A DNA stretch of 64,000 nucleotides from the NCBI GenBank assembly GCA_964550315.1, contig CAZJYY010000007.1:2806-66805 (forward strand). Reading direction: 5' to 3'. Below are positions 4,542 to 20,379 of this stretch, piece after piece. This DNA comes from an uncultured Oscillospiraceae bacterium (GTDB taxonomy: Bacteria > Bacillota > Clostridia > Oscillospirales > Oscillospiraceae). Below the pieces are notes generated by a model. That model did no database searches. It saw only the letters and a list, made by a program, of their open reading frames with translations, and was not told the origin of the DNA. The translations under genes were made by a program, and so were the position numbers. The number at the start of each line of letters is the position of its first letter. Position 1 is the first letter of the stretch.

Positions 4542-5774
4542 TTATTTTTGTTTATCCCTAAAAATCATAACAAGCTCAATAAGCATTTTTGCTATCTTCT
4601 CCATAGAATCTACGCTGCAATACTCATAAGGCCCGTGGAAGTTTAATCCGCCCGTGCAAAGGTTCGGGCACGGAAGTCCCATAAATGAAAGTCTTGCCCC
4701 GTCGGTGCCGCCACGAATGGGAACGATGTTCGGTGTTATGTTAACCTTATTCATAGCCTCCCGAGCATATTCAATAAGCTCCATATGGGGAAGAATTTTT
4801 TCCTTCATGTTGAAGTAGCGGTCCTCCGTCTTAACAAAAACGGTTCCCTCTCCATACTTTTCGTTGAGATAATCCCCCACTCTATGTGCAAATTCTTTGC
4901 GGTGCTCAAACTTTTCACGGTCATGATCCCGGATGATATACTGAAGCTCTGCTTCCTCCACCCCTCCGCTCATGGCGTGAAGATGATAAAAGCCCTCGTA
5001 GCCCTCGGTATGGGAGGGTGTTTCCCATTGGGGAAGCATGGAGGCATATTCCATGGCCACAAGGGACGCATTGACCATCTTATTTTTTGCGCTGCCGGGA
5101 TGAATGCTTTTGCCCTGAACGAAAACGCCGCAGTTGGCGCCGTTAAAGTTTTCGTACTCGATTTCTCCAAGCTCACCGCCGTCAACAGTGTAGGCAAAGG
5201 CGGCGCCGAAATCTTTCACATCGAACTTTTCCGGTCCGTTTCCTATTTCCTCGTCCGGTGTGAAGCCAATGCAAATCTTGCCGTGAGGAATTTCGGGATG
5301 GGTGGTAAAATACTCCACCATGGTCATTATTTCCGCAATGCCCGCCTTGTCATCAGCCCCCAAAAGGGTGCTTCCGTCAGTCACGATAAGCGTTTGTCCC
5401 ACATGCTCTCTAAGACTTTCAAATTCTGCCGGGTCAAGATACATCCTGCGCTCTTCACTGAGCACAATTCTTCCACCGTTGTAGTTTTCAATAATACGGG
5501 GTTTTGCATTTTCTCCCGAAGCATCGGGCGAGGTGTCCATATGGGCAATGAAGCCCAGTGCCGGCACGTCTTTCTCCCCAAGATTTGAGGGAAGCTCCGC
5601 CATAACATAGCAGTAGTCGCTTAAACGCACATTCTGTGCCCCAAGCTCTAAAAGCTCCTTTTCAAGCTCACGGGCAAGGGCCCACTGCTTTTCTGTACTG
5701 GGCAAGGTATCCGCTTCCTCTTTGGACTGAGTGTCAAAGCTTACATATCGTAAAAATCGTTGGGTTAAAGACAT
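4542..5774 (-). CDS. pepT: peptidase T (tripeptide aminopeptidase, M20B)
   Basis: MSLTQRFLRYVSFDTQS..., with HMDTSPD, GADDKAG and TPDEEIG metal-ligand motifs. ATG at 5772-5774 follows GAAAGGAAA. The first codon of the track ORF (5795) is TTG without an RBS. Confidence 0.93.
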   Translation of the reverse strand: MSLTQRFLRYVSFDTQSKEEADTLPSTEKQWALARELEKELLELGAQNVRLSDYCYVMAELPSNLGEKDVPALGFIAHMDTSPDASGENAKPRIIENYNGGRIVLSEERRMYLDPAEFESLREHVGQTLIVTDGSTLLGADDKAGIAEIMTMVEYFTTHPEIPHGKICIGFTPDEEIGNGPEKFDVKDFGAAFAYTVDGGELGEIEYENFNGANCGVFVQGKSIHPGSAKNKMVNASLVAMEYASMLPQWETPSHTEGYEGFYHLHAMSGGVEEAELQYIIRDHDREKFEHRKEFAHRVGDYLNEKYGEGTVFVKTEDRYFNMKEKILPHMELIEYAREAMNKVNITPNIVPIRGGTDGARLSFMGLPCPNLCTGGLNFHGPYEYCSVDSMEKIAKMLIELVMIFRDKQK

Positions 5775-5811
5775 ATATATTTTTCCTTTCGGCAATTACT
5801 CTAATGGAAAC

Positions 5812-5841
5812 ATTATAGCATTTATACACTGTATTTGTCAG
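5812..5841 (-). promoter_or_regulatory. putative sigma-A promoter of pepT
   Basis: On the minus strand: CTGACA (5836-5841), an 18-nt spacer, then TATAAT (5812-5817), about 40 nt upstream of the pepT start. Confidence 0.4.
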
Positions 5842-5854
5842 TATAATTATGCAC

Positions 5855-5869
5855 AAAAAAGGACTTCCC
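5855..5869. repeat. left half of a split host terminator stem (AAAAAAGGACTTCCC)
   Basis: Perfect reverse complement of 20353-20367 (GGGAAGTCCTTTTTT). Read on the minus strand, the two halves form A-tract, stem, stem, T-tract, which is a classical intrinsic terminator downstream of the M23 peptidase gene. Confidence 0.7.
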
Positions 5870-5916
5870 TTCTGATGATGCTCATAGGTACTATATGTGA
5901 ACCTTGTATTGTCAGG

Positions 5917-5952
5917 CAAGGAGGCGGACGGCGAAAGTCGTCCGCCTCCTTG
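5917..5952. terminator. 14-bp perfect hairpin just past the recombinase stop codon
   Basis: CAAGGAGGCGGACG (5917-5930) pairs with CGTCCGCCTCCTTG (5939-5952). A T-run (5953-5957) is on the plus strand only. It may insulate pepT from recombinase read-through. Confidence 0.4.
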
Positions 5953-5955
5953 TTT

Positions 5956-7644
5956 TTATGCCAACAGTCTTATAATGTCGTTTTTGCTTGTAATCGCAGG
6001 CGTGATGTGCGGCTGCTGTTCAGCAGCGTCCATGACGCTGTCTACCGTGCCGATGTCGCGGTAGATGATGCGGATGCTCTGCCCGGAGGAATGCGAGTAC
6101 TTCTTGCCACGCTCTCCCACCTCAATGCGCTGAATGAACAGGCGCAGCAGTTCCGGTGTCAGCTCGTCAATGGTGGTGTACCGCTTCGCCTTTTCAATGA
6201 AGGCATCCACATTGGCTGCAGAGGCTTTAAGTTTCTCCAGCCGCGATTCTTTCTCCGGGATAGCATCCTCCAGCGCCTTTTGTTCGGCATTGTAGTCAGC
6301 GGAGAGCATTCTGAACTGTTCGTTGGTCACACGGCCGAGGACATTGTCCTCATAGAGGTGTTTGAACAGGGTCGAGAGCTCACCGCTCCTTCGCCGCATG
6401 GTGTCCACATCCTTTTGCAGAGCATTGATCTCCCGCCGCAGTTCCAGTGTATTTTTCTGGTTGATGTAGGCCGCGAATTGCCGTTCCTTCATTCTGGCGA
6501 AGTGAGTGACACGGCGAAGATCGTCCAGTATAACTTGCTTGAGATCCACCACCCGAATCTGGTGTGGTGTGCAGGCCTCCTTGCCGCGTTTCCCATAGGT
6601 GGAACACCGCAAGTAGTATTGATCTTCCTGCATTTTTTCCGTGCGGTTGAGATACATGTACTTCCCGCAGTCGGCGCAGTAGACAAGGCCAGAGAACAGA
6701 TTGGGTTCCTCCATGTGCTTGGGTGCGCGGCGCTTGTGCTGACGGACATCTTGAACAATGTTCCATGTTTCCAACGTAATGATTGGCTCATGGGTATTCT
6801 CCACCAGCACCTGCTCGCTCTCTGGATTGTAAACGGCCTTCTTATTTTTGTAAGAGATGGTCGTCTTTCGCATGGAAAGCGTGTGACCGATGTAGACTGG
6901 GTTCTCAAGAATGTGTTTGACTGTCGATTGCTGCCACACATATGGTCTGGTTGTATCCAGTCCCATAACCGTTGCGCCCGTTTTCCGATAGTAATGGTTC
7001 GACGGGTTGAGGATCTGCTCCTTGGTCAGAATGCGTGCAATCTGACTCGGGCCCTTGCCGGAGGCGCAGAGCTCGAAGATGTGCCGCACCACCGGTGCGG
7101 TCTCTTCGTCCGACACAAGGCTTTTGGCGTCAGCATCCTTCTTTTTGTAGCCGTATGGAGGCTTGCCGCCCAGACGCTCACCGCGTTCCGCCTGCATCCG
7201 CTTGACGGCGCGCACTTTCTTGCTGGTATCCTTGGCATGGAGCTCGTTTGCCCAATTTCGGATGGGATTAAAATCGTTGCTGCTCTCCACCAGCGAGTCC
7301 ACGGAATCATTGACGGCGATGAAGCGGACGCCCTTCTGTGGCAGGTAGATTTCCGTATAATATCCCACCTGCAAATACTCGCGTCCCAGACGACTGAGGT
7401 CTTTGACGATGAGTGTCTCCACTTCACCGCGCTCAATCATTTCAATGACCTGCTTCCACGAGGGCCGCTCGAAGTTGGTGCCGGAATATCCGTCATCGGC
7501 CAGAAACAATGTGTTTTCGAATCCGTTATCATGAGCGAATTTCTGTAACAGGATCTGCTGATTGTGGATGGAATTCGACTCGCCCATGCGGTCATCCTCT
7601 TGACTGAGTCTGCCATAAAGTATATTGATTTTTTGGCTTGCCAT
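5956..7644 (-). CDS. large serine recombinase (TnpX/phage-integrase-like)
   Basis: 562 aa. The N-terminal resolvase catalytic domain is ILYGRLSQEDD...SIHNQ...DDGYSG...VKDLSRLGREY. It also has a recombinase domain, a Cys zinc ribbon (CADCGKYMY...CSTYGKRGKEACTPH) and a coiled-coil C-terminus. AGGAGG lies 10 nt upstream of the ATG. Confidence 0.92.
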   Translation of the reverse strand: MASQKINILYGRLSQEDDRMGESNSIHNQQILLQKFAHDNGFENTLFLADDGYSGTNFERPSWKQVIEMIERGEVETLIVKDLSRLGREYLQVGYYTEIYLPQKGVRFIAVNDSVDSLVESSNDFNPIRNWANELHAKDTSKKVRAVKRMQAERGERLGGKPPYGYKKKDADAKSLVSDEETAPVVRHIFELCASGKGPSQIARILTKEQILNPSNHYYRKTGATVMGLDTTRPYVWQQSTVKHILENPVYIGHTLSMRKTTISYKNKKAVYNPESEQVLVENTHEPIITLETWNIVQDVRQHKRRAPKHMEEPNLFSGLVYCADCGKYMYLNRTEKMQEDQYYLRCSTYGKRGKEACTPHQIRVVDLKQVILDDLRRVTHFARMKERQFAAYINQKNTLELRREINALQKDVDTMRRRSGELSTLFKHLYEDNVLGRVTNEQFRMLSADYNAEQKALEDAIPEKESRLEKLKASAANVDAFIEKAKRYTTIDELTPELLRLFIQRIEVGERGKKYSHSSGQSIRIIYRDIGTVDSVMDAAEQQPHITPAITSKNDIIRLLA

Positions 7645-7728
7645 GAATTATTTACCTCCTTCATATCGGGGCAAGCCGGTACGGTAGCATCAGTATACCG
7701 CACCGACCTGCACAAGTCTATTGGAATC

Positions 7729-8013
7729 TCAGGCGCTGTGGGCTTCTTTTGCAAGATCGGCATCAATGAGCGAGAGCAGCTTGTCCGTAGGAGTGGCCTT
7801 CGTCTCCGAAGGGAAAACCGAGGTGACGTGAAACACCTTGCCTCCAATCAGCATTTCCCTTGTACCGGTAAATCCATCGTCTTGGAACCAATAGGTCGTG
7901 TCGCGGAAAGTCGCGGCAACCTTGTTGGCATCCTCTTGGCGGAGCACAGCCTTGTTGGGATCATAGCTGCCCAGCATACCGGTATCTCTGTATTCTTCAT
8001 ATTCAGTTCTCAT
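7729..8013 (-). CDS. TnpW-like small transposon protein (putative)
   Basis: IGGKVFHVTSVFPSETKATPTDKLLSLIDADL resembles the TnpW family of Tn4451-type elements (from memory). The ATG at 8011-8013 follows GAAAGGAAA; the alternative ATG is at 8031. Confidence 0.5.
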   Translation of the reverse strand: MRTEYEEYRDTGMLGSYDPNKAVLRQEDANKVAATFRDTTYWFQDDGFTGTREMLIGGKVFHVTSVFPSETKATPTDKLLSLIDADLAKEAHSA

Positions 8014-8038
8014 AGATTTCCTTTCTGCCATATTCGGC

Positions 8039-9187
8039 TTACATCATAGTCATGCTGAACCCGAACTGCTCCTGCTCGTCCTCATAGCCCATGCAGTTTT
8101 CCGGTTCCTGTTTCAGTTCCTCAATAAAATCATTGAGATTTTGGTCATTGATTTTGTCGTGATCGGTATTGGCGATGGCGTCCAAAAGCAGATACACACC
8201 GGCGAAGGACAGCGCTGTAAGCGTGGCAAGCTCCGTGATGGTTTCCAGCTCATCGTCCTCACTGACGCCCTGCTCCAAGTATTTTGCATGATGCAGAATT
8301 TCATTGGTGAGCTTTCTGCCACTTCGGGACATAGGCATTTCGGATGCCTGCACAGGCTTGCGTTCCAATGTGTCGCGCTGCCATTCCCAGCCGGTGGCTT
8401 GCTCCGGCTCCTGCTTTTTCTCTCTGTAGTCAAACTCCAACTCCATGTTGACCTTGGAGTCCCGCTCACCGAACAGCCGGTCATCACGGCATGGCTTGCC
8501 GTTGGGACACAGGTAGGTGATGGTCTTGCGCTTGTCCGACCACTTGACGAAGTACCCCTGACACTCCATGTTGAAAATGAAATCCTCACGGGTTTTGCTC
8601 TTTGCCATAGCGATGTCGATAGCCTGCTGGAGCGCGTCCTTCCAACTGTCGCCCCGTGCCTGTGCCTTACGCTGGGCGCGGCTTGGAGTCTTGCTTCGTC
8701 CAAAGGTGTAGGTGGGCAGCGTTTCAAACCCGTGCGCTTGGCATATCTCATCGGAGGACAGCCGCAGCTTGCGGATGGTATCTGGTGGCTGATGCAGCTT
8801 TCGCCCGTCTGCGAAGCTCACCGAGTTGATAATAAAATGCGAATGGATATGCGGAGCGTCGATGTGAGTTGCAATCAGAACTTCATAATCCGGATAATTC
8901 TTGCGTGCGAACTCGCATGCAATTTCATGCGCGGTCTGCGGCGAGATATTTTCACCCACCTTGAAGCTTTGGGTGTAGTGGTAGAACTGAACATCGCCGG
9001 TCTTTTTATGCTGCGCCTTGGTGGAGAGGAACTCGGCGACAGCGGTTTCGGCACAGCAGTTCTGTCCCGTGATGAGACGGTACCCCTCCGGCAGCAATGT
9101 CTTTTCCTTTAGACAGGCGTATTGGATCACGCCGCGCAGAGTGAAGGCGGACTGCTTCTTGTACGGGATGTAATTAACGGTCGCCAT
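8039..9187 (-). CDS. relaxase / mobilization nuclease (MobA/VirD2 family)
   Basis: 382 aa. The histidine triad HIDAPHIHSHFIINSV (HxDxxxxHxH) and the N-terminal catalytic-Tyr region MATVNYIPYKK are present. GGAGGA RBS. Its start overlaps the mobC stop. Confidence 0.88.
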   Translation of the reverse strand: MATVNYIPYKKQSAFTLRGVIQYACLKEKTLLPEGYRLITGQNCCAETAVAEFLSTKAQHKKTGDVQFYHYTQSFKVGENISPQTAHEIACEFARKNYPDYEVLIATHIDAPHIHSHFIINSVSFADGRKLHQPPDTIRKLRLSSDEICQAHGFETLPTYTFGRSKTPSRAQRKAQARGDSWKDALQQAIDIAMAKSKTREDFIFNMECQGYFVKWSDKRKTITYLCPNGKPCRDDRLFGERDSKVNMELEFDYREKKQEPEQATGWEWQRDTLERKPVQASEMPMSRSGRKLTNEILHHAKYLEQGVSEDDELETITELATLTALSFAGVYLLLDAIANTDHDKINDQNLNDFIEELKQEPENCMGYEDEQEQFGFSMTMM

Positions 9188-9587
9188 AGGTTTCCTCCGT
9201 AATCCCGAACAGCTCCATCATCTGACGACGACGGTCAACGGTGATTGGCGGTTGTTCCGTCTTCGCTTCTGACTCTGGCGGTACACTGTTCCCGCCGCAT
9301 AGCATGGTGAGCCGGTCGAAGACGCTGCCGAGGGCATCCTTGGTTTCGCTCAAATTGACCGTCCGAAGGTGTCCCAAGTTGGCGCGGACGGTCAGCTGAT
9401 TCAGATTGTTGCCGATGGCCTTCAACTCCCGCGTGAGCTTATGCAGGCCGTCGATCACAACAATCTCCTTGTTAAAAATCGCATGCCGGATAAAATCCGA
9501 CTTGCTCATATGGGCTTTCTTTGCCAGCGCCTTCAGCATCTGCCGCTCTTTTTCGGTAGCCCTAAAGGTTTCAAATTTGTCTTTCAT
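9174..9587 (-). CDS. mobC: relaxosome accessory protein MobC
   Basis: 137 aa. It has a ribbon-helix-helix-like N-terminus (RATEKERQMLKALAKKAHMSKSDFIRHAI) and LKAIGNNLNQLTVRAN, typical of the MobC family. AAGGAG RBS. Confidence 0.8.
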   Translation of the reverse strand: MKDKFETFRATEKERQMLKALAKKAHMSKSDFIRHAIFNKEIVVIDGLHKLTRELKAIGNNLNQLTVRANLGHLRTVNLSETKDALGSVFDRLTMLCGGNSVPPESEAKTEQPPITVDRRRQMMELFGITEETYGDR

Positions 9588-9724
9588 TCAAGTGTTCTCC
9601 TTTTTATCGTTTGTCGTTCCCCGCATCCAAAGTGGGCACGGGCTTCTGCCCGAAAACTGGCGAGGCGCGGGCGTATATACGCCTGCTCTGCTCGCCCCAC
9701 CCGAGGTGGGAAGGCGTATCCCCG
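9588..9724. other. candidate oriT region upstream of mobC
   Basis: Non-coding 137 nt between the AAA ATPase stop and the mobC start. It contains a perfect 14-nt palindrome GGCGTATATACGCC (9670-9683), a hairpin CCCACC-cga-GGTGGG (9696-9710), and a repeat of GGCGTAT as GGCGTATCCCCG (9713-9724). Confidence 0.35.
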
Positions 9725-10792
9725 TCACCCCTCGTCAGGAACGCAAGGGTCGCAAGTGACGGAAGATTTGGCACACCCGGTATTTGCGTCATTTCCGTCA
9801 CTTGAGTCACTGTGAACAGCAGAGAAAGAAATATCTACCAGCCGCTGACCGTTGCTGCGATAGCTGCGGAAGTGTATGCCTGCTTCCTCCAACGGATAGC
9901 GCCACTTGTTCATCATCTGCTTGAGACCTTTTGCTGAAATGTCCATATTGGTGTTAGCATGGAACTGTTCGGTCAGCTCCGCGTTGCTGCCGGTGTAGGA
10001 ACCGATGCCGCGCGTGAACACAATCAGCGCCGCCATCTCTTTTGGCAAAAGCATCTCCGGCATCTCCGCACTGTCCATAATTAAATCCCACGAACAGTTT
10101 TCTTTGCAGAAGTTCAGTTCCAACTCACGGTATTCAATGTCGCGTCCCGTGCAGACAAGTGTTGCTGCCGACTGGCTGCGTTTGCTCTTGTCCAGCACAA
10201 ACACAGCGTCCACCGCACCGCTGATGCCCGTTGTGCCCGAGAGTTTGTTCAGCGGATCGCTGTCACCCTGTTTGCGCAGATGATGTACCAGCAGGAGCGA
10301 GATGCCCAACTCGTCCGCCAACGCTTTTATCTGCTGGATCTCCTGATAATCGCTGGCGTAGGATACATCCGTTTCGCTTCCACGCACCATCTGGAAGGTG
10401 TCGATGGCGACCAGTACCGTGTCGGGGTGCTCGAATATGAATTGACTGATCTGATTGACCAACCCATTCGCCAGCGTCTTGGCCGCCACCGCGAAGAACG
10501 CGTTGGGCGGCACCTCATCGGTGATGCAGAGCAGACGCTCCTGTATGCGCCGGGCGGTATCCTCAAGGCAGAGATACAGTGTCGTGCCCTTTGCGGTTGG
10601 CAGGTTCCAGATGCACTCGCCTTTAGCAATGCGGATGCACAGGTCAAGCACCAGCCAGCTCTTGCCGATCTTTGGTGCGCCGCCCAGCACGGTCACGCCC
10701 TGCGGCAAGAGTGTCTGCACGCAAAACCGAGTCGGCGGCAGCCGCATGTCCATCAGGGTTTCGCCGTCGATGACGGCCAGTTTATTTTCCAT
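9725..10792 (-). CDS. AAA/RecA-like ATPase (RepA/DnaB-C-like, mobile-element replication or transfer helper)
   Basis: 355 aa. Walker A is GGAPKIGKSW and Walker B is LLLVHHLRK, a RecA-fold pattern common in plasmid or ICE RepA-like proteins. GGAGGG RBS. Confidence 0.7.
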   Translation of the reverse strand: MENKLAVIDGETLMDMRLPPTRFCVQTLLPQGVTVLGGAPKIGKSWLVLDLCIRIAKGECIWNLPTAKGTTLYLCLEDTARRIQERLLCITDEVPPNAFFAVAAKTLANGLVNQISQFIFEHPDTVLVAIDTFQMVRGSETDVSYASDYQEIQQIKALADELGISLLLVHHLRKQGDSDPLNKLSGTTGISGAVDAVFVLDKSKRSQSAATLVCTGRDIEYRELELNFCKENCSWDLIMDSAEMPEMLLPKEMAALIVFTRGIGSYTGSNAELTEQFHANTNMDISAKGLKQMMNKWRYPLEEAGIHFRSYRSNGQRLVDISFSAVHSDSSDGNDANTGCAKSSVTCDPCVPDEG

Positions 10793-10903
10793 GTTGATCC
10801 CTCCTTCTTGTCTGCTTTCATTTTACAAAATCGTGTGGTATGCTTATATAGCGAATTGCAAGAATGAAATTTCGTTAAAATCTATTCTTTACGAGGTAAC
10901 TGC

Positions 10904-11989
10904 ATGGAGATTACTTATCCCTTTGCGAAGGTATTTGCAGACAACACAAATCGTCTGAGTGCATTCCTCTGCCACGATGCACAGCACAGCAGCTTTCGGC
11001 AGATCGGCGACATTGGAAACAGCCTTGTGGATTTTTGCGAGCTGGACTTTGCTCCTGCATTGGAGAAAACAAAAGCGCTGGCAACCATGAAGGTTACCAG
11101 CGCCAATGCGGAGGAGATGAAGTCTGTCTGTTGGGCGGCCGTGGATTGTTTGAAGGAGAAACACGCCTATGCCCACTTCTTTTTGAACAGTGATTTGGTA
11201 CGGAATTTTTACGCCTCCAACCGCACTTTGCCGGAGCAGGCGAACTATGCACACTTCCTGTTTCGCTACTATGCTGGGATGCGGGTGTTCTATCGGGAGG
11301 CATTGGAGCTTTGTTTGAGCACCGAGGTGCTGCCGGAATATACGCTTCCGGAGCGGTATGTGATGTTCGCAAACCTTCATCCGGAGGTTCAGAATCAAAT
11401 GCTGCGGACCATGTACGCCGTGGCTCCTGTCAGTCATGGTCAGTTCCACGCCGAGCAGGTAATTCAGTTTGACAATCCGGACGAGGTCAATGTGCGGACG
11501 GTTTTAGACGGGCTGCACAGAGACAGCGAAAACTCCGTCAGCCTTCATGCGTATTTTGCCGTGCAGAGTCTGGAAGAAATATTGTATTTGGAACTGATGG
11601 AAGCGGTGAAGCGAGGCATCCGCGTAAAGCGCTGCGCATTATGTGACCGATATTTTGCCCTTGCCGACAAGCGCAAGCGCAGCTACTGTGACCGCCTTTT
11701 CGACAAGAAGCATACCTGCAAGCAAATCGGCGCCAAGCAGAAATTCAGTCAGGCTGTGGGCGGAGATCCTTACTTGCAGGAGTTTCAGCGGGTCTATAAC
11801 CGAATGTACAGCCGGTACTATCGCGAGGACGCCGGGGACGGCGGCAGTGGAACGAAAAAATTAAGCGACGATGAATTTAAGGTGTGGACGGCCGCCGCAT
11901 CTGAGCTGCGCAGGGCATACCGCAGGAAAGAAATCAGCGGTGAGGAACTACTTCACCGCATTGCAGACGATGGCGCGGTCAAAGGATAG
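10904..11989 (+). CDS. hypothetical protein with C-terminal Cys cluster (only plus-strand gene in the island)
   Basis: 361 aa. The C-terminal RCALCDRYFALADKRKRSYCDRLFDKKHTCKQIG looks like a CxxC...C...C zinc-finger-like motif, followed by a basic Tyr/Arg-rich tail. A weak GAGGT RBS is present. Confidence 0.6.
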   Translation: MEITYPFAKVFADNTNRLSAFLCHDAQHSSFRQIGDIGNSLVDFCELDFAPALEKTKALATMKVTSANAEEMKSVCWAAVDCLKEKHAYAHFFLNSDLVRNFYASNRTLPEQANYAHFLFRYYAGMRVFYREALELCLSTEVLPEYTLPERYVMFANLHPEVQNQMLRTMYAVAPVSHGQFHAEQVIQFDNPDEVNVRTVLDGLHRDSENSVSLHAYFAVQSLEEILYLELMEAVKRGIRVKRCALCDRYFALADKRKRSYCDRLFDKKHTCKQIGAKQKFSQAVGGDPYLQEFQRVYNRMYSRYYREDAGDGGSGTKKLSDDEFKVWTAAASELRRAYRRKEISGEELLHRIADDGAVKG

Positions 11990-12043
11990 TAACCCAAACG
12001 AAAACACACCCACAGCGTTCGCATACGCCGTGGGTGTGTTCCG

Positions 12044-12811
12044 CTATTTCATTGGTGGCGTAGTTTGTGGCTTGCAGTCTGGCGGCGTGCTGATCTTTTC
12101 TGGCCTTGTGTTGATGGTCTGGTCGATGACTTCGCCGTTTGGTTCTGGCAGTTCTTGCGATGGTGCAGATGCATTGTGCGACGGCGCTTCGTCTTCGCCG
12201 CCCATGATACCGACCTTCACGCCGGACTCGTACATGATGTAGTTCTCTGTGCGCTGGCTCGGGCCGCTCCACTTCACCAACCCGAAGCCGGGGACTTCAT
12301 AGTAGGCGTCACCGTCAATCCAGATCGTGTCTGAGCCAAAGGCGGTGGGATATGTGATGGTCTTGCCGACGAGGTTGCCGCCTGAGTCGTTGAGGAGTTC
12401 CTCCGAGTAGACATTGTTTGGGTAGACATCGGTGTGGTAAATATCAGCTGATGCCGGTGCGGAGTTTTGCGGCGCAGATTTCACCGCAGGGGGCGCGGTT
12501 GGTGTCTCTTGCATGGCGGTGCCGGGTTCATCAGCGGTCACGGGCACTGACATGATTTCTTCTTTTACGGCTGTTTTCCCAGCCGTTTCGGGGGTGTAAT
12601 GTTCCGCTACCGGCATGACCGGCGTATCGTCAGAGAATGCATACACTTCTCTTTGCGTAGGCTGCGGAAGCTCCTCCGTGTAGACGCCTAAATCCCCACT
12701 TTCAGCGTCTGCGGGTACTTTCCCGCCCACGTCGTTTTGAGGCAACACAGCGGCACACAGCGCCGCACATGCGGCGATTACGATAGCTGTTGTGAGTATC
12801 TTTTTCATCAT
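12044..12811 (-). CDS. secreted hypothetical protein
   Basis: 255 aa. The signal peptide is MMKKILTTAIVIAACAALCAAVLPQ, followed by a Pro/Thr/Glu-rich linker and a small C-terminal domain. Its start ATGATGA overlaps the stop of the upstream gene. Confidence 0.65.
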   Translation of the reverse strand: MMKKILTTAIVIAACAALCAAVLPQNDVGGKVPADAESGDLGVYTEELPQPTQREVYAFSDDTPVMPVAEHYTPETAGKTAVKEEIMSVPVTADEPGTAMQETPTAPPAVKSAPQNSAPASADIYHTDVYPNNVYSEELLNDSGGNLVGKTITYPTAFGSDTIWIDGDAYYEVPGFGLVKWSGPSQRTENYIMYESGVKVGIMGGEDEAPSHNASAPSQELPEPNGEVIDQTINTRPEKISTPPDCKPQTTPPMK

Positions 12812-13125
12812 TTTGCGTTTTCTTTCACAGATGCAGAAAGGCCATCCAACTCAACCGCCTCGGTCGATGTTGAATGGCCTTCTTCATAATTGTTCAATTC
12901 ATTTGCCAACTGCCACGCCAACTTAAAGCCGCAGATGAAGCTGTCATATGACCGCTCCAACGCCATCATGCCCAAGTCATCTACAATTCGCAACACGACC
13001 TTGCGATCCTCTACCGCCAGCCGTTCCCGTAACAGGTCCCGATTCGCCTCCACCGCCTGTTTCAGTTCCATCATCTCCGGCGGTGAATAAAAGCTGTCAT
13101 ATAGTGCTCCCAGTATCTTGTCCAT
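12808..13125 (-). CDS. small helical hypothetical protein
   Basis: The ATG at 13123-13125 (MDKILGALYD...) is preceded by AAGGAGG 9 nt upstream. It is translationally coupled to the downstream secreted protein gene. Confidence 0.6.
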   Translation of the reverse strand: MDKILGALYDSFYSPPEMMELKQAVEANRDLLRERLAVEDRKVVLRIVDDLGMMALERSYDSFICGFKLAWQLANELNNYEEGHSTSTEAVELDGLSASVKENAK

Positions 13126-13322
13126 GTGCCTCGCCTCCTTGTAGCAAGACACAATACCAGAATAGGATTGGAAAGTCTATTACTATTTCTGTTTGCTTTA
13201 TTGGATTGCTGAAGGGGCGGGAAGTGCAACAGCCATGGCACTTAATATGTCCTGACGGCGTGCCGCCTATTTAGAATAGGTTTACTTTCTTGCCGTTCAT
13301 TAAGGATACGCCACCTCGCGAA

Positions 13323-14660
13323 CTATTCCGATCTGCTTTTGTCTATAGATTCTTCAGCACATATGGGGTTAGATCCTTGTAAAATTTCGTTTATTCCGGA
13401 GACCAGTGTGCATGAGAAACTACGCAGTCCTCCGGGAGTAGAGAGTCCTCGAACCGGTACTTGTATCGCAAAGACTGTGTTGCCGTCAATCTGATAAGTC
13501 GCCGCCAGATTGATAGGTGCTTCTGCATCCAATCCTGACTCGCTTGGATACGCCAAAAACAGATATCTGCACCCAGAAGATTGGCAAAATGCAAGAGCCT
13601 CATATAAGTCGGCGCGATTCACATCTCTGCTGCCATTAAGGGATAAATGCTTGTATTTAGCGTCGACAAGATACACGACTTCACCAGTGTCAGGTTGTAT
13701 TGTACTAACATCTGGATAAACAAATAGTCGCTGCGTTGCCGCATGCTCTTGAACAGTCCCAAACGGGAACGGTTTCTGCCCTACGCTGTCGAGGTCCGTT
13801 TCGCCGATCCGAATGGCGGTTGTCAGTAACCACTCCCATATCTGCCATGTACTTACTATAAAACCGGGTGAAAGAATGCTTCCATCGGTGAATATAGCAC
13901 CCATGCCATGTATAATGTCATATGCCAAATCGTACTCGCCCTTCCATCGAAGTTCGCGCGCTGGCAACTCAAGCCTTGGTCGATCCAGTCTAACAGGATC
14001 CTGCGGTTGGAGTACGGTGATGGATTCTTGAAGAATGCGCTGCACCTTTACATCGGTGATATGTGGCTGTACATAACGCATAGCCGCGAGAATTGTCGCG
14101 TTATACTCATTTTTCTTATCAAATGTGACATTCTCCTGAGGAATTCCATCCGGCTGCAAGACAAAAGCGTCTTCAAAACGGATTTCACCCTCTATGGAAT
14201 AACCATCGAACTGATTGCGCCGGTACTTTCGTAGCAGCTGCCGCCGCAAAGGAATGAAGTTCTCCGCCAAAGCACGACCTACTATATCATAAAGCGTACT
14301 CCGGAATGCTGAGACCGTGTGAATATTATCGCCTTCGAGAAGTCTGCCGTATTTGGAGAGTGTGGAAAGAAGATAAAAATCTTCTTTCCAATGCACGTCA
14401 CTTTCCGCAAAACCAAGGTATTTCGGGACGATTTCAAGTTCGACTTGCACCGAAAGTCGGATAGACCCCGCAACATTTGCCGCGCGAACTGTATCTGGCC
14501 CCATAATCAAAGGTGCAGCGGTGAGGGAAAGTGCTTTCATAATCCGAGCATTCGCTTTGCGCAGTAATATGCGCATATTTTGCGGTGCTATGCGACATCT
14601 GTTCGCAAGTACGTCTATATTTTCTGCTGGTCCGTATTCGTGTAAGACAATTTTATACAT
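13323..14660 (-). CDS. McrC-like PD-(D/E)xK nuclease subunit
   Basis: The LEIVPKY motif and PDTGEVVYLVDAKYK (D...D-x-K nuclease core) match the McrC family. The ATG at 14658-14660 sits in ATGTATAA, overlapping the stop of the upstream AAA+ gene. The longer track ORF (to 14762) would overlap by 110 nt. Confidence 0.8.
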   Translation of the reverse strand: MYKIVLHEYGPAENIDVLANRCRIAPQNMRILLRKANARIMKALSLTAAPLIMGPDTVRAANVAGSIRLSVQVELEIVPKYLGFAESDVHWKEDFYLLSTLSKYGRLLEGDNIHTVSAFRSTLYDIVGRALAENFIPLRRQLLRKYRRNQFDGYSIEGEIRFEDAFVLQPDGIPQENVTFDKKNEYNATILAAMRYVQPHITDVKVQRILQESITVLQPQDPVRLDRPRLELPARELRWKGEYDLAYDIIHGMGAIFTDGSILSPGFIVSTWQIWEWLLTTAIRIGETDLDSVGQKPFPFGTVQEHAATQRLFVYPDVSTIQPDTGEVVYLVDAKYKHLSLNGSRDVNRADLYEALAFCQSSGCRYLFLAYPSESGLDAEAPINLAATYQIDGNTVFAIQVPVRGLSTPGGLRSFSCTLVSGINEILQGSNPICAEESIDKSRSE

Positions 14661-15762
14661 CTGGCTCACCGGCCGCAACCATTGCCGGATAAACATTTGC
14701 TGCAGTAATAGCTGGCTTTCGTAAAACGGCGCGGACATCCTCAGCAAAGTTTGCTTCTTCAACTAAGTACGGCGATCGAACATCGGATGCGTTGATTACA
14801 TATCCGATAGAGATTGAATTTCCAAAAAACAACTCTTCAATGTGCGTCATAATCGTGCCCCACACATCGGCGCAGTAATCCAGGGCAGAGGAGAGGTTGT
14901 CAGCCGCAGGTCTTCTGATATTCATAAATATGCCGTGACCTAATCTATAAACATCGCCTCGCCCGACGGCAACCTTGTCATTTATTCGCTTGAGCGCTCG
15001 TATCGCCGCAAAGTACACTTCCTCAGCACGGGTTGGAATTTCGGGAAGCGCTACATCTTCAGTAATTCCAAAGAAGGTCCTTAAAGCATTGTAATCTGGC
15101 TCCAGCAAAACAGATTCCCAGCGCCTGAGAAACGCCACATCCAACGGAGCAACAGATACATCCGCCTGATTCATAGCTGCCAGAATATATAGGCGCGGCG
15201 AAAATGCGTAATCGACTGCATTCCCATCAACGGGCGAAATTATTTCAAAGCTCTGTGTCGTGGGAAGCACGGTGCCATCTTCAGCCAACCGTTTATCCAG
15301 TTCCAAAGCGGTAATACTCCCGCCGAATGCTTCAACGGCAGGACCGCGGTTGATTTCATCAAAAATGACAAGCGCAGCACTGTCCGGCTGTTTTGCGAAT
15401 TCATTCGCACGGTACAGAATGCCTTGTGTAACACAATACCCGTTATTCTCTGTGCCGATTTGAGGAACAATTCCAGTCAGCAGATCGCGGTACTTAGTGT
15501 TCTGGTGAAATGTTGTGCGGAAAACTTGTTTATGGGGAACGCGCAAAAACGGGAGCCTGCGCATTATGGGTGTTTCGACATCTGCGGGGATAGGAATTGC
15601 AGCACCAGGAATGTGTGCTGGAGCGTCTACCGGTTGACGGACAGTCATAAATTCTTCAGCCACTTCGTTCATAAGTCGAGACTTTCCTGTGCCTGGTGCT
15701 CCAATCAGCAAAACATTTTTACGTGTTTGCAGTTTCGCCAAAACCTCAAATTTATCTGCCAT
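14653..15762 (-). CDS. McrB-like AAA+ GTPase/ATPase lacking an N-terminal DNA-binding domain
   Basis: Walker A is LLIGAPGTGKSR at about residue 20 of 369, and Walker B is LVIFDEINRG. AAMNQADVS and LDVAFLRRW correspond to the McrB signatures MNTADRS and DxAxRRRF. The ATG at 15760-15762 follows GGGAGGG and overlaps the upstream stop by 11 nt. Confidence 0.82.
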   Translation of the reverse strand: MADKFEVLAKLQTRKNVLLIGAPGTGKSRLMNEVAEEFMTVRQPVDAPAHIPGAAIPIPADVETPIMRRLPFLRVPHKQVFRTTFHQNTKYRDLLTGIVPQIGTENNGYCVTQGILYRANEFAKQPDSAALVIFDEINRGPAVEAFGGSITALELDKRLAEDGTVLPTTQSFEIISPVDGNAVDYAFSPRLYILAAMNQADVSVAPLDVAFLRRWESVLLEPDYNALRTFFGITEDVALPEIPTRAEEVYFAAIRALKRINDKVAVGRGDVYRLGHGIFMNIRRPAADNLSSALDYCADVWGTIMTHIEELFFGNSISIGYVINASDVRSPYLVEEANFAEDVRAVLRKPAITAANVYPAMVAAGEPDV

Positions 15763-16345
15763 TGTTCCATTCCCTCCCGTTTTCAATATCTACATATCCA
15801 TTCGGGGTACCCCGACAATGAGCGTTCAGTCCGCGTAAAATGGGATCTTTAACAGCGGGATGCCAATTATCATTACGTAATGACTGCTCCGAAGTAAAAG
15901 ACGGCCATACGCGGTTTTCACTGTCAAGAACAAGTATAAGTACACAATCATCTGTATTAGTAGGCCTAACCTGTTCTGGAAAGCACTGGTGAACTGTTGC
16001 AATACGGACTTCTCCTGGGCGCGAATTCGTCGGCTGATGAATGGTTACATTCGTCGGAGGCAGTTCTGGCCAATAAAACTGCCCTAAGAGCGTGTTATCA
16101 GGACCTTGTACGGTAAACATACGGTTAAACAGCGGCGTGAACACACTATCAGGTCTGAAACGCAAGTCACGCGCGCCTCCTCCGTTATCAGAGTCGTTGG
16201 ACTCTGCTCGGAACTTTCTAAAGTCTCCGGGGACAATTTTTTTATAGATTATCAGCTTAACCCCTGTCAGCTGTGTGTTTCCGTTTGGCAATAAACTCAC
16301 CCGTCCTTTCGCCCACAATATCGGTTGGTATGTATGGTGTTGCAC
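15752..16345 (-). CDS. orphan protein of unknown function (candidate DNA-recognition subunit)
   Basis: 197-aa frame between the methyltransferase and the McrB-like gene, with both ends overlapping its neighbours. The first codon is GTG (16345). Alternative starts are GTG 16300 and TTG 16291, both after GAAAGGA. See findings for a tentative B3/EcoRII-N-like motif. Confidence 0.6.
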   Translation of the reverse strand: MQHHTYQPILWAKGRVSLLPNGNTQLTGVKLIIYKKIVPGDFRKFRAESNDSDNGGGARDLRFRPDSVFTPLFNRMFTVQGPDNTLLGQFYWPELPPTNVTIHQPTNSRPGEVRIATVHQCFPEQVRPTNTDDCVLILVLDSENRVWPSFTSEQSLRNDNWHPAVKDPILRGLNAHCRGTPNGYVDIENGREWNNGR

Positions 16346-18455
16346 CGCATTTACGAGCTGCTCGATAGCGCTCTGAGTATTCTTCTGCTTGTACGCCGTA
16401 TTGACTGGAAGCGCTGGATAATAAGTAGTCGCGTGTAACGGTTGACCTTATTTCGCCTTTGAGCGAGGGCTGCTTGCGGTCGAGGAGGGGAAAATCCTCC
16501 ATAATTAGATATAAATCATTATAACTCAATCCGTATGCCAGCGCTACAGCAATGTCAATCTTACACCGCAACGCCGCAATTTTCATCTCGTCTGCTTCGG
16601 GCGCACTCCGTAATTTGCGTATCGTCCGTGTCGCTGTAATGATCGCCTCAGCGGTCTTTGAGTCTATGCTAATTTCCGGCATTGGAACGCTGAGAATCAT
16701 GAAATAGTTTGCAGTCGTTGAGATAATCCGTCTGAGCAACCAGTCATATACGAAACTGTTTGTAATACCTACCCATAAAAGTTCACGCTTTCCGTCGCTG
16801 CTGTTTTCAAACAGTATAGTTGGAACCTTGTTCCCACAAGCGACGCCGGCAGGCAGAACGCAGCTCATCATCGCACGTTCGTTTGTCTGTCCGGCAATAT
16901 CGCAATAACCGACGCGTTCACGTTGCACTCTGGCATAAAATTCTTTGGATAAATCCTTCGGGTTCATCCAAAACTGCGGTTTCAGTTCGCCATTTGCCGG
17001 TTCCCACCGCGCGGCTCTTCCTGTACCGGACACATACTTTTTAACCGCGAACCAGTGTTGCTGTACCATGCGCCCTTCAACAACGGCAATAGTAGCGCCA
17101 TTCGGCTTAGTGTAAAAAAGGCCTTTATCGTTTGTCATATCAAGTTCACGCGAAATGCTGCAAGCCCACTCGGGGCTGTTACTCCAATCACAGCTGTTCT
17201 CATATATTCGGAAATACAACTCCACCTCTTCTGCTGAGCGAACCTCTGGCAGAGTCAAATCCGGTCTTGCTTTGCGAAGCTTTTGGACAGATATTGTCAC
17301 TGGTTCGGACACCGAAATCTCGTTTTTAGTTCCACCACAATGAGCGAGTTTGATACTTTCCACGAGCGATGCTTTTGCAGTGAAATCGCAATCCAGCAAA
17401 ACAAACTTGAACCGAGTATCTATGGCAAAAAAACGAGGTCGGTTGCTGATAATAACGAAATCTAAATGTGAGCATTTTGTAGCAAGTTTTTCACGAATGG
17501 CAGTTGTACCCTTTGACCGAATAATCCCGGCCGGCAATAGGATCAGGATCCTGCCACCTTCCTTCACCGCACCAAACGCTCTTTGCAAAAAAGCAATATA
17601 GGTGTCGGACTCTGTTTTTTGCAACCAGTCGTATTGTTCACGCAGACGTTTGTTATAATCCGCAAGTTTCTTTTTCTCCGCAGCAAAATGATCATTGTCA
17701 TATGGTTCATACTCTGCACCGTATGTGTGATCGTTGCCGTTCTTCGCCATATATGCGTGTCTCGTCAGTTTGACCTTTCCCCAAGGCGGATTTCCAACAA
17801 CCAGATCAAATTCTCTTGTGGGGAGATCATCATCCAGAAGGCTGTCCGCAACTCGCCATTTCTCTGTCATGGTTTTTATGCCTGTGACATCAGAAAGATA
17901 GGAGGATAACGCGATTCGACAGCCGCGAAGCGCATGCCCCGACAAATCATACGCATACACATTTCGACTAAGCCAGCGCTCCATATCGGCAGGATATTTT
18001 CGTTTGTATGCAGCGGTCACCGCAGTAAGCAGAATACCTGATCCAGAGGACAAATCCGCGACAGTCGATTCTTTTGACAGGACTGCACTGCTGTGATCTC
18101 CAATCAATGTTGCAAGCCGATAGTCAGTATAATATGCGCCCAATTCTTTTTGGTCGGCTCGGTCAAGTGGTTCCCGTGACAGCGCCGCGATAATAAGGGC
18201 CTTGTCCACGCCGATGTTTTCAGCTAATAGCGTCAGCTTTGCCGAAACACTATGCAGAAGCGTAGAATCAAATTTCGCTGCCACCTGAAAGCAAGAGCAG
18301 TAATCGGCGTAGTCAAATCCTCCAATAGTGCTTGCCCAATGCTCAAGCAACTGCAGCTTTCCTTCATATTCGTTGGGGGTGTTCTGGATCGCATTTGCAA
18401 TAGCCGCTTCAAAAGGCTGCAAAAGCGACACTTCATATGTTGTTGTTACAGCCAT
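16257..18455 (-). CDS. gamma-class N6-adenine DNA methyltransferase (Eco57I/TaqI-like NPPW type) with large C-terminal target-recognition region and no nuclease domain
   Basis: 732 aa. It has motif X GAYYTD, motif I DLSSGSGILL and motif IV VVGNPPWG. About 400 aa lie after the catalytic core. The start overlaps the upstream methylase stop by 23 nt and follows AAAGGAAA. Confidence 0.85.
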   Translation of the reverse strand: MAVTTTYEVSLLQPFEAAIANAIQNTPNEYEGKLQLLEHWASTIGGFDYADYCSCFQVAAKFDSTLLHSVSAKLTLLAENIGVDKALIIAALSREPLDRADQKELGAYYTDYRLATLIGDHSSAVLSKESTVADLSSGSGILLTAVTAAYKRKYPADMERWLSRNVYAYDLSGHALRGCRIALSSYLSDVTGIKTMTEKWRVADSLLDDDLPTREFDLVVGNPPWGKVKLTRHAYMAKNGNDHTYGAEYEPYDNDHFAAEKKKLADYNKRLREQYDWLQKTESDTYIAFLQRAFGAVKEGGRILILLPAGIIRSKGTTAIREKLATKCSHLDFVIISNRPRFFAIDTRFKFVLLDCDFTAKASLVESIKLAHCGGTKNEISVSEPVTISVQKLRKARPDLTLPEVRSAEEVELYFRIYENSCDWSNSPEWACSISRELDMTNDKGLFYTKPNGATIAVVEGRMVQQHWFAVKKYVSGTGRAARWEPANGELKPQFWMNPKDLSKEFYARVQRERVGYCDIAGQTNERAMMSCVLPAGVACGNKVPTILFENSSDGKRELLWVGITNSFVYDWLLRRIISTTANYFMILSVPMPEISIDSKTAEAIITATRTIRKLRSAPEADEMKIAALRCKIDIAVALAYGLSYNDLYLIMEDFPLLDRKQPSLKGEIRSTVTRDYLLSSASSQYGVQAEEYSERYRAARKCGATPYIPTDIVGERTGEFIAKRKHTADRG

Positions 18456-19488
18456 CCGATTTGTTTCCTTTCGTATATACGATTAGATACTCGTCAACCT
18501 GTGACTTTCGCTGTACCGCAGTCTGGTTTGGACGATAGCTCCCTATACTTTGTAAATTTACGACTTCTACTTTACCATGCTGCAATAATTCCTGCTTCAA
18601 CGAATCAATGTTGACATGACCGTCATCGCTATACGAAAGTAGTATTTGCTTTGCTGGAAGCGTCAACAAAAGATTAATTAAGGCTTTGTGTGCTTTCGCC
18701 TTGTAGCAGAAAACGGAGGCATCCTGCTTCCATGGGCGTAGCCCGGAAACACCTTCGACGGCAGGCTCATCCTCCTGTGCAATTGTCTCAAGTATGTGAT
18801 AATACGACGCATACTGCCTTTTTGTGTATGGTGGGTCTATATATACACAATCATCCGGGTTACACGGAAGATCAAACACATCGCAGCACATTGCCTCGTA
18901 TCGTGTTGGCTCTGCAAACAAGTCAAAGAGGCTTAACCTAAAGGGCCGCGTTGACTGCTCTGTCCATTTTGATAGGAAACAACCATATGTCCCCGCAGTA
19001 TTTGCAACATTGTTCGCGGCCGACATGACACTCGCGAGCAGCAATGTGTGCTCCCGTTCGTTTATAACACCGTCACGATACCATCCAGCAATTTGTACGC
19101 GAACAGCGTCAATACACTGGGCGTTATCCTCTGAAAAATACCGTCGCTCGTGCGGGGTGAAGCTTTTGGATGCAGGTGAATACTCCCTCCATATATATCC
19201 CTTGATCGGCGATAGCGAATTGAGTTCATCAATAGTGGCTTGATATCCACCGAGAGTTTTAAATTCGGCATCCTGCGCGGAAAGTAATCTTGCTTCCGAC
19301 ATAACAACAGCGTTCTTCATTCTGTCGTTTATTAGAACAGGCCACCCGGCTCGCGCGGCTTCATAGGCGACGATCCCCGTACCGCACATAGCGTCAATAA
19401 ACCTACTGTTTGCAGATTTGGGTTTCCCTACATATTCAATAATTGATTCGACGACCCTTGCTTTTGATCCGATATACCGATATCCCAT
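18433..19488 (-). CDS. D12-class (Dam-like, alpha) N6-adenine DNA methyltransferase
   Basis: 351 aa. It has N-terminal YRYIGSKAR, motif I RFIDAMCGTGIV and motif IV VYIDPPY in the order I-TRD-IV. Confidence 0.85.
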   Translation of the reverse strand: MGYRYIGSKARVVESIIEYVGKPKSANSRFIDAMCGTGIVAYEAARAGWPVLINDRMKNAVVMSEARLLSAQDAEFKTLGGYQATIDELNSLSPIKGYIWREYSPASKSFTPHERRYFSEDNAQCIDAVRVQIAGWYRDGVINEREHTLLLASVMSAANNVANTAGTYGCFLSKWTEQSTRPFRLSLFDLFAEPTRYEAMCCDVFDLPCNPDDCVYIDPPYTKRQYASYYHILETIAQEDEPAVEGVSGLRPWKQDASVFCYKAKAHKALINLLLTLPAKQILLSYSDDGHVNIDSLKQELLQHGKVEVVNLQSIGSYRPNQTAVQRKSQVDEYLIVYTKGNKSDGCNNNI

Positions 19489-19527
19489 TGTTTGTTTACC
19501 TGCTTTATCATTTTTGTTTCCCCGTGT

Positions 19528-19746
19528 TCACTTCGTCGATACTTCCTTTGGAAGAACCTCCATGATATCATTGATACCGACACCCAGCGCCTGACATATT
19601 TTAATTAAAATTTCCGTATTCACATTCTCGCCCTTGCCAAGCTTAGCAAGGGACGATGTGCTTATATCCGCCAGCTCACAAAGCTCGCGCTTTTTCATAC
19701 CGCGGTCAATTAGCAAATGCCATAGCTTCTTATAGCTCGCACCCAA
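19528..19746 (-). CDS. XRE-family helix-turn-helix regulator (controller/C-protein-like)
   Basis: KKLWHLLIDRGMKKRELCELADISTSSLAKLGKGENVNTEILIKICQALGVGINDIM is a classical Cro/C1 HTH. The likely TTG start at 19744-19746 lies 5-6 nt after AGAGGTGA. The track start is GTG at 19755. Confidence 0.8.
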   Translation of the reverse strand: MGASYKKLWHLLIDRGMKKRELCELADISTSSLAKLGKGENVNTEILIKICQALGVGINDIMEVLPKEVSTK

Positions 19747-19793
19747 AATTATCACCTCTCAAGAATAATGCTTGCGAATCAACACTTTCTGGT

Positions 19794-19822
19794 ATTATAT
19801 CACAAGAACTATCGCGATTCAA
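19794..19822 (-). promoter_or_regulatory. putative promoter of the controller/defense operon
   Basis: On the minus strand: TTGAAT (19817-19822), a 17-nt spacer, then TATAAT (19794-19799) with an upstream TGTGA. The spacer and -35 overlap the palindrome ATCGCGAT (19811-19818) and one arm of the inverted repeat CAAGAAAG (19820-19827) / CTTTCTTG (19850-19857). Confidence 0.4.
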
Positions 19823-20287: not shown

Positions 20288-20306
20288 TTATTACCCCGTA
20301 CCAACA

Positions 20307-20348: not shown

Positions 20349-20352
20349 CCTT

Positions 20353-20367: not shown

Positions 20368-20379
20368 TGCCTTTGCTCT

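Follow-up and report, generated by a model that had tools for sequence, protein, structure and literature searches.

A mobilizable element with a TnpX-like serine recombinase in the probable loop of a host transcription terminator

Introduction

Tn4451 is a mobilizable element that, like the element described here, combines a serine recombinase with a Mob relaxase; its recombinase TnpX is a longer protein, and both Tn4451 and Tn5397 have been reported with a GA core. Many described integrative and mobilizable elements (IMEs) use tyrosine integrases and reside at the ends of tRNA or ribosomal-protein genes. We analyzed a stretch of 64,000 nt from an uncultured Oscillospiraceae bacterium (henceforth the window; contig CAZJYY010000007.1 of assembly GCA_964550315.1, positions 2,806 to 66,805), in which an island of 14.48 kb encoding a TnpX-like large serine recombinase lies between a gene for an M23 peptidase and pepT. 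Multi-targeting large serine recombinases have been assigned to a clade that includes TndX-like enzymes and in which 63% of the members have the DUF4368 domain (Durrant 2022, PMC10083194). As described in the main text of that work, the target of the clade member Cp36 has an AA core that is A-rich on its 5' side and T-rich on its 3' side, and one multi-targeter with 21 attB (host attachment) sites has a TT core and T/A-rich ends (PMC10083194).

Here, we compare the island and its flanks with an island-free contig of the same assembly, with other species of the genus, and with related elements. Based on this comparison, we consider it highly probable that the element was placed by its own TnpX-like recombinase into a terminator of bidirectional appearance, in the loop of the hairpin that separates the M23 peptidase gene from pepT.

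The Split Terminator and an Empty Site

The 15-mer AAAAAAGGACTTCCC at 5855-5869 has its exact reverse complement, GGGAAGTCCTTTTTT, at 20353-20367; re-reading the sequence reproduced both the positions and the perfect complementarity given in a first-pass annotation of the window. With up to one mismatch allowed, the 15-mer occurs at just these two sites in the window, where 0.02 are expected (100 shuffles), and the two copies belong to an inverted repeat of 46 nt (5855-5900 / 20322-20367, 74% complementary) that is the longest within 5000-21500. Because about two perfect 15-nt inverted pairs of any sequence are expected within 64 kb by rough arithmetic, such a pair is not improbable alone, and what makes this one significant is where it lies, together with the comparative evidence.

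The 15-mer occurs a third time in the same assembly, on another contig, C81, at a site without the island. On C81, nothing but a hairpin separates pepT and its promoter from the 3' end of the M23 gene, which is the island-free arrangement that the first-pass annotation had proposed to look for. The hairpin (L033:1495-1535) comprises an A-run, an 8-bp stem GGACTTCC, a 4-nt loop, the second arm GGAAGTCC, and a T-run. The stem contains five G-C pairs and is followed by six or seven T on either strand, that is, it has the GC stem-loop and U-run of an intrinsic terminator; the predicted RNA fold has an energy of -24.4 kcal/mol (z -5.8) on the gene strand and -22.0 kcal/mol on the other strand. In a three-way alignment, C81 matches the left junction of the island through 5869 and the right junction from 20354 onward. 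The host features on both sides of the island are:

20380 to 21186, minus strand: M23 peptidase gene (Pfam PF01551), the gene whose terminator is split
4542 to 5795, minus strand: pepT (peptidase T; NCBIfam NF003976, 605 bits against a cut-off of 255; Pfam M20 and M20_dimer), downstream of the split terminator
5812 to 5841, minus strand: promoter-like site of pepT, CTGACA-18-TATAAT with TG, 11 of 12 matches; also at the C81 empty site
5848 to 5869, minus strand: host arm B', GGGAAGTCC plus T-run, the putative 3' half of the terminator; identical to C81 up to 5869; half-site score 9.9
20353 to 20374, plus strand: host arm B, GGGAAGTCC plus T-run; identical to C81 from 20354; half-site score 14.2

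The M23 stop codon and the pepT promoter had both been noted before, and an open reading frame (ORF) indeed ends at 20380 on the minus strand, just as the promoter-like site is found at 5841..5812 on that strand. On the minus strand, host arm B reads as an A-run and the 5' half of the terminator, 12 nt past the M23 stop codon. The two junctions together imply a site composed of arm GGACTTCCC, then TT, then arm GGGAAGTCC, with a loop that would read CTTG on the plus strand. The likely empty counterpart thus supports the interpretation that a single intrinsic terminator of the host, which lay between the M23 peptidase gene and pepT, was split into the two 15-mers.

The pepT protein encoded on C81 is 94.9% identical to that of the window, and the promoter region has diverged. 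As judged from the sequences, C81 is a sister allele from a co-resident other strain rather than the direct ancestor of the split site. Sequence-run data were available as assembled Logan contigs, and three runs may be the source sample; contig depth in these probable source runs reveals a second left-flank variant at about 1/4 to 1/3 of the main strain, which fits a co-resident island-free strain. The centre of the C81 loop is GC, where the element needs AA or TT. Core identity is required in other serine integrases and, if it is required here as well, the C81 site would reject the element.

The M23 gene and pepT are also adjacent in 13 species of the genus, where they are separated by 155-555 nt, in some cases with a small additional gene, and no island is present. 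A hairpin with a T-run was seen by eye right after the M23 gene in 12 of these 13 species, and the stems are species-specific. A consensus terminator scan flagged neither the C81 hairpin nor a hairpin just past the recombinase gene of the island (5917-5959); the former miss is tentatively attributed to greedy stem extension by the scan, in which the A-run pairs with the T-run, and the latter probably arose from stem extension with G-T pairs.

The stem GGACTTCC / GGAAGTCC with its A and T tracts is not confined to this assembly. A metagenome scan for the hairpin with a free 4-nt loop matched at least 121 loci on unrelated contigs (L034-L154), and the loops CGCA and TGCG together account for 35 of the 140 loop matches among the listed loci. 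None of these listed loci resembles the flanks in the window by blastn or tblastn, and no second empty site is among the matches listed. To judge from these matches, this stem is very widespread in the terminators of different organisms.

Related Elements and Their Host Arms

By scanning one genome per species, we obtained 80 loci with related recombinases. Of these, 28 constitute a close group in which the recombinase is 69-92% identical, C-terminus included. All 28 near ends, that is, the ends proximal to the recombinase gene, have the same organization: a hairpin, an arm with GTACCTATGGG, and ...ATCAG plus 2 nt, after which similarity ends. Each relative adjoins a different host arm at this point, and the arms are of one shape, a GC-rich arm followed by a T-run. 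The T-run is found 7-20 nt out in 26 of 27 distinct arms (one duplicate dropped), compared with 2,870 of 20,000 random positions (14%). Column by column, T occurs in 19-27 of 29 near-end arms at positions 11-18, with G preferred at positions 2, 3, and 6 and C at position 9, and the cores of these 29 ends are AA (22), AC (5), and GA (2). L155, the sole relative with at least 90% identity (92%), is inserted at a different site, and the 27 others (69-80%) are on 26 further distinct arms. The first-pass annotation had reasoned that homologous islands with the same 15-mers at their ends would make these part of the element; the 15-mers occur in none of the 28 relatives, all of which lie beside different arms, so that repeats travelling with the element were not found in the close group.

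Using the conserved far-end hairpin, we located the far ends of 10 relatives which, together with the window, gave 11 elements ranging from 8.7 kb to ~97 kb. In all 11 islands, the far host arm is preceded by an A-run and complements the near host arm (an A-run was read by eye in 14 of 14 far arms). When the cognate arms were joined in silico, all 11 pairs formed hairpins with energies between -14.4 and -32.1 kcal/mol, compared with a mean of -11.3 kcal/mol for 132 non-cognate pairings. For nine of the 11 pairs, only 0-5 of the 132 non-cognate pairings fold equally well, and for the two weakest pairs the corresponding numbers are 12 and 30. Because the arms are complementary within each island and differ between islands, they are host DNA and not terminal repeats. 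The intact hairpin on C81 and the complementary arms in 11 of 11 islands thus agree with the original proposal that the island lies in a terminator loop.

The remaining loci with related recombinases include three more distant groups, whose near ends, the part considered here, likewise adjoin a GC-rich arm and a T-run:

Group B: recombinase identity 58-69%; T-run in 9 of 11 arms; near ends only
Group C: recombinase identity 36-43%; T-run in 25 of 27 arms; near ends only
Group D: recombinase identity 42-45%; T-run in 2 of 4 arms; near ends only

Several of the related loci have features of their own. L180 and L238 (AP018533.1, ~2,474,155 to 2,571,290) have complementary arms ~97 kb apart just after a tRNA gene, and they represent either one very large element or several elements in tandem within one terminator; the near ends of L182, L186, and L188 also adjoin tRNA-like sequence. 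In L201-L234 (36-43% identical), complementarity is often seen between the end of the element, ...CACCGCCCC, and the first letters of the host arm (GGGGCGG...); the junction itself then folds into a hairpin with the host T-run behind it, possibly a rebuilt terminator. L240 (G044:C12) and L248 (G046:C115) have an identical far-end flank and the core AC, that is, the same site is occupied in two species-level genomes.

attP Arms and Probable Crossover Site

The ends of the island itself contain the following predicted features, none of which is assigned to a strand:

5872 to 5900: arm P' of attP (the element attachment site), with CATAGGTAC at 5883-5891; kept in 28 relatives up to the junction, where similarity ends
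20301 to 20354: far-end hairpin of 22 bp (91% complementary), whose 3' half is attP arm P (20322-20350); conserved in 13 of 13 related far ends
5870 to 5871: putative crossover dinucleotide at the recombinase-proximal junction, TT on the plus strand and AA on the recombinase strand; from CCCTT at both junctions and the fixed attP position
20351 to 20352: putative crossover dinucleotide TT at the far junction; from CCCTT at both junctions and contigs of other elements

The 9-mers CATAGGTAC and GTACCTATG, the latter at 20331-20339 within attP arm P, each lie 13 nt inside the respective 15-mer and had been suggested to be the attP arms. The suggestion holds insofar as the distance to the junction is the same in all relatives; the extent is revised, with each arm having about 18 nt (20322-20339 and 5883-5900, 15 of 18 positions complementary by our own count, 11 nt from the core) and the 9-mers forming the centres. 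The far-end hairpin folds at -41.8 kcal/mol with its flank. Beside the attP arm, this hairpin contains the CCCATAGGT arm motif a third time, in inverted orientation, and it could be an accessory recombinase site.

The sequence CCCTT is common to both junctions (5867-5871 and 20348-20352). In runs X2-X4, which represent the same and further metagenomes, contigs of other elements agree with the element end as far as 20352/20353 and from there on enter different sequences with a GC-arm and a T-run. The core follows directly after ...ATCAG at the near end and is located 5 nt before AAGCCCC at the far end. In all 11 islands, the core dinucleotide is equal at both ends (seven AA, three AC, and one GA), and the same co-varying dinucleotide at both ends would be the signature of a core shared by the two sites of a serine recombinase. 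Moreover, the core falls inside the predicted loop in 11 of 11 cases and, according to the bracket strings, centrally in a tetraloop in most of them. The crossover in the window was therefore most likely at TT (5870-5871 / 20351-20352), given these sequence comparisons.

Prediction of Landing Sites

To score potential target sites, we built a half-site matrix from 40 arms of relatives, excluding the window, and applied it with a free core to 2,519,848 positions of the genome. The rejoined site of the window scores 24.15; one genome position scores as high and none of those with an AA or TT core, so that the window site ranks first among the AA/TT-core positions of the 2.5-Mb genome. Among contiguous sites, the second-highest score belongs to the empty site on C81, and every top match is a terminator hairpin. 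With a matrix of near arms only, four sites score as high. The stem columns of the matrix hold 0.03-0.83 bits per position. That the element occupies what is roughly the top predicted site in its host favours targeting over the mere survival of harmless insertions, and, on this comparative evidence, terminators appear to serve as landing pads for the recombinase group. Next in rank among the predicted sites of this genome (G000) are C11:16032, C32:21517, C24:788, C18:34183, and C78:4092; all are terminator hairpins, and C18:34183 and C78:4092 are the same site twice.

Gene Content and Inward-Facing Hairpins

According to its gene content, the island at 5870-20352 (14.48 kb) is an integrative mobilizable element with defence-type cargo. 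Its size is ~14,481 bp, which includes the interior (5872-20350) and one core dinucleotide. The annotated features are:

5956 to 7644, minus strand: large serine recombinase, TnpX-like, 562 aa (Pfam Resolvase, Recombinase, Zn_ribbon_recom, DUF4368)
8039 to 9187, minus strand: relaxase, MobA/VirD2-type (Pfam PF03432, PF21983, and PF05713 for the relaxase/accessory region 8039 to 9587)
9174 to 9587, minus strand: NikA/MobC-like accessory protein (Pfam, jointly with the relaxase)
9725 to 10792, minus strand: AAA_25 / DnaB_C-like ATPase (Pfam)
13323 to 14762 and 14653 to 15786, minus strand: McrBC-like pair (Pfam McrBC, AAA_5)
16257 to 18455 and 18433 to 19488, minus strand: two N6-adenine methyltransferase-like genes (Pfam N6_Mtase/Eco57I, MethyltransfD12)
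19528 to 19755, minus strand: HTH (Cro/CI-type) regulator (Pfam HTH_26, HTH_3)
5917 to 5959, plus strand: 14-bp hairpin past the recombinase stop codon with a T-rich tail on the plus strand (sequence and fold, read by eye)
20255 to 20287, minus strand: hairpin resembling an intrinsic terminator, 14 pairs with tail CTATTTTTGT, ~65 nt inward of the far end

The catalytic domain of the recombinase (PF00239, 4.4e-18) aligns with TnpX residues 5-118 including the Y.RLS serine motif, and it is followed by PF07508 (2.3e-24), the zinc-ribbon PF13408 (7.9e-15), and DUF4368 (PF14287, 5.7e-21, residues 469-535). Of the solved structures, the catalytic domain of TnpX (PDB 2mhc) is the closest and matches residues 4-117 with an E value of 5.6e-40; further PDB matches are 9dxh (6.5e-14) and 3bvp (2.4e-9).

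Among the 18 ORFs of the island, the Pfam search revealed a recombinase, a relaxase, and a NikA/MobC protein and no family of a type IV secretion system or conjugative pore, which is the composition of an integrative and mobilizable element. NCBIfam MobP-type matches in the relaxase/accessory region are under the cut-offs. Six of the 18 ORFs have no Pfam match. Among the small ORFs, eight have no PHROGs match, seven of those eight have no NCBIfam match either (10904-11989 was not put to NCBIfam), and no candidate directionality factor was found among the small ORFs put to these two databases. The minus-strand ORF 10889-11449, which has no family, overlaps the plus-strand DUF6076 ORF 10904-11989, and likely just one of the two is real. 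Upstream of the mobC and relaxase genes, a 19-nt inverted repeat (9746-9811, 84% complementary) is a candidate origin of transfer (oriT). None of the Logan contigs skips the island or shows a circle junction; rare forms are invisible in contigs, and these data are therefore uninformative on excision. The element is presumably still active.

The hairpin at 5917-5959 is conserved in the relatives with changed stem letters. The one at 20255-20287 is oriented against transcription entering from the M23 gene, and a like-placed hairpin with a T-rich tail was detected by a crude finder of our own in 11 of 14 far ends including the window. These putative inward-facing hairpins at both ends may replace the terminator that was split.

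Discussion

Based on these comparisons, the following course of events can be proposed. The recombinase encoded at 5956-7644 would have inserted the element into the loop of the terminator past the M23 gene and before the pepT promoter, acting on double-stranded DNA with a dimer at each site. The terminator dyad would provide two similar half-sites, namely the GC-rich stem arms with the A-run and the T-run at a fixed distance, whereas attP would provide two 18-nt arms, each 11 nt from the core. Strand exchange would take place at the central TT (AA on the recombinase strand), which is why TT would now stand at both junctions. The first-pass annotation had already suggested that the stem served as the attB half-sites, and we retain this suggestion with the refinement that the half-sites likely take in the A- and T-runs and not the stem alone; arms plus runs are presumably what the recombinase reads. 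Because close relatives are inserted in many different terminators, a degenerate, terminator-shaped motif rather than one particular gene would guide the choice of target.

A wider generalization, which we advance tentatively and rate at somewhat less than an even chance, is that the generic bidirectional intrinsic terminator, and not a gene, is the natural attB of the whole TnpX-like DUF4368 branch (40% to 92% identity). In the attB of the branch, an A-run would be combined with any GC-rich dyad of ~9-10 bp, whose loop holds the core dinucleotide, and with a T-run at a fixed spacing. The dyad would be hidden in sequence logos, as stems vary between sites and co-vary only within a site, and the published motif with an A-rich region, AA, and a T-rich region would be the visible rim of a terminator. 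The inward terminators at both element ends would stand in for the split one and make the terminator a safe harbour, available in nearly all bacterial genomes, with nearly no cost to the host.

Two alternative explanations concern the nature of the 15-mers. If these were terminal inverted repeats owned by a transposon-like element and not host DNA, perfect inverted repeats with an imperfect extension to 46 nt would be expected at the exact ends of a foreign segment, as is the case; but C81 has the hairpin uninterrupted and free of the element, the 15-mers are absent from all 28 related elements while the flanking arms all differ, and what is conserved of the repeat, namely the attP arms, begins 13 nt further inward. 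We thus assign next to no probability to this explanation. It is likewise extremely improbable that the 15-mers are a chance match, or independent terminator halves, with the true boundaries elsewhere. A 15-nt inverted pair is not rare in 64 kb and this stem recurs on at least 121 unrelated metagenome contigs, yet the similarity to C81 ends at 5869 and resumes at 20354, and the similarity among related elements ends at the same junctions.

Two further alternatives accept a terminator insertion and differ in how it came about. The recombinase might read a DNA structure, such as an extruded cruciform or a single-stranded hairpin formed during transfer or replication, instead of the bases of a duplex; that the stems differ from site to site while complementarity is kept, with stem columns of only 0.03-0.83 bits, would be consistent with this. 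However, complementarity belongs to terminators anyway and need not be read by the protein, serine recombinases act on duplex sites bound by dimers, and there are base preferences at arm positions 2, 3, 6, and 9 and in the T-run. Given also that Cp36 integrates in human chromatin at the A-rich/AA/T-rich motif, as the published main text describes (PMC10083194), we consider structure reading improbable. The insertion might instead be of low specificity, with the cases in terminator loops merely surviving because no gene is broken. All data are natural, fixed insertions in which selection is inseparable from specificity, but mere survival does not readily account for a crossover in the loop in 11 of 11 islands, for the start of the T-run within a narrow range of distances, or for a matrix built from other sites that ranks the window site first among AA/TT cores, when neutral intergenic DNA offers many other harmless spots. 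In addition, the A-rich/AA/T-rich motif of Cp36 was recovered in human cells, where no bacterial selection operates, according to the same text (PMC10083194), and survivorship is in our estimation decidedly improbable.

Insertion into the terminator loop by the element's own recombinase is thus the explanation that we prefer, and several observations weigh against it. On the plus strand, the C81 loop reads CGCA instead of the implied CTTG, with three neighbouring letters changed and GC at the centre, so that C81 cannot be the immediate precursor of the split site. C81 is also the sole empty site that was found, and the exact pre-insertion allele of the island-bearing strain was not found. The arms of L166 and L244 are not complementary (-9.9 kcal/mol, with 82 of 132 non-cognate pairings folding as well); they were rejected as a cognate pair and taken, by assumption, for two elements in a fragmented metagenome-assembled genome. 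A T-run is missing from its expected position in L158 of the close group and in 2 of 11, 2 of 27, and 2 of 4 arms of the distant groups. The pairing of arms was not blind, as it used contig position or complementarity, and the contig relation of L184 and L247 is unclear; of the 28 relatives, far ends were sought only in the genomes of 10 and at the L158 locus. Finally, one of five column-shuffled matrices also gave the site a high score (23.74; the other four gave low ones), and what the matrix describes is for the most part a symmetric terminator with stems of 9-10 bp.

Within this one genome, the finding is ordinary: a mobilizable element that carries defence genes and has clean ends, together with a co-resident strain without it. 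The element itself belongs to a known kind, and the notable part is the terminator rule. If true, this rule would explain how multi-targeting enzymes can move between distant hosts without breaking genes, and also where the published A-rich/AA/T-rich motif comes from. It further enables the prediction of sites, as a matrix from relatives leads to the best AA/TT-core position of a 2.5-Mb genome, and it could inform how such enzymes are employed for integration in non-model bacteria. It also raises the question of whether the dyad itself is read or just the A/T tracts and a few stem bases.

Comparison with Known Systems

A literature search found no paper that links serine recombinases or integrases, DUF4368, TnpX, or TndX to terminators. 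The words "terminator," "hairpin," and "palindrom-" are absent from the main text of PMC10083194 and from the passage considered here of a paper from 2026 that deals with multi-targeting integration in bacteria (PMC13137831).

With regard to phage serine integrases (SPbeta SprA/YokA, TP901-1, and PhiC31), the recombinase shares the catalytic, recombinase, and zinc-ribbon domains and the dyad att sites with a central dinucleotide; unlike these enzymes, which have a single attB that is usually within a gene, it and its relatives are found at many intergenic terminator hairpins. Similar to IMEs of Firmicutes, the subject of a review (Guedon et al. 2017, PMC5704250), the element encodes an integrase, a relaxase, and a MobC-like protein and no conjugation apparatus by Pfam, and it differs from many described IMEs in combining a serine recombinase with a terminator loop. 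The likeness to TnpX of Tn4451/Tn4453 and TndX of Tn5397, which stem from mobilizable and conjugative transposons of clostridia, includes the nearest structure, which is the TnpX catalytic domain 2mhc, whereas, in contrast to Tn4451 and Tn5397, the AA core dominates here and the cargo consists of McrBC-like and methyltransferase genes and not of a resistance gene. The closest correspondence is to the DUF4368 clade of Cp36, Pc01, and Enc9, in which domains and motif place the recombinase: the same four domains are present, related enzymes are found at many loci, and targets have an AA/TT core between an A-rich and a T-rich side (PMC10083194, main text). What sets the sites described here apart from the clade motif as given in that text is a GC-rich dyad between the A and T tracts that varies from one site to the next, which makes the targets probable intrinsic terminators with the core in the loop of the hairpin.

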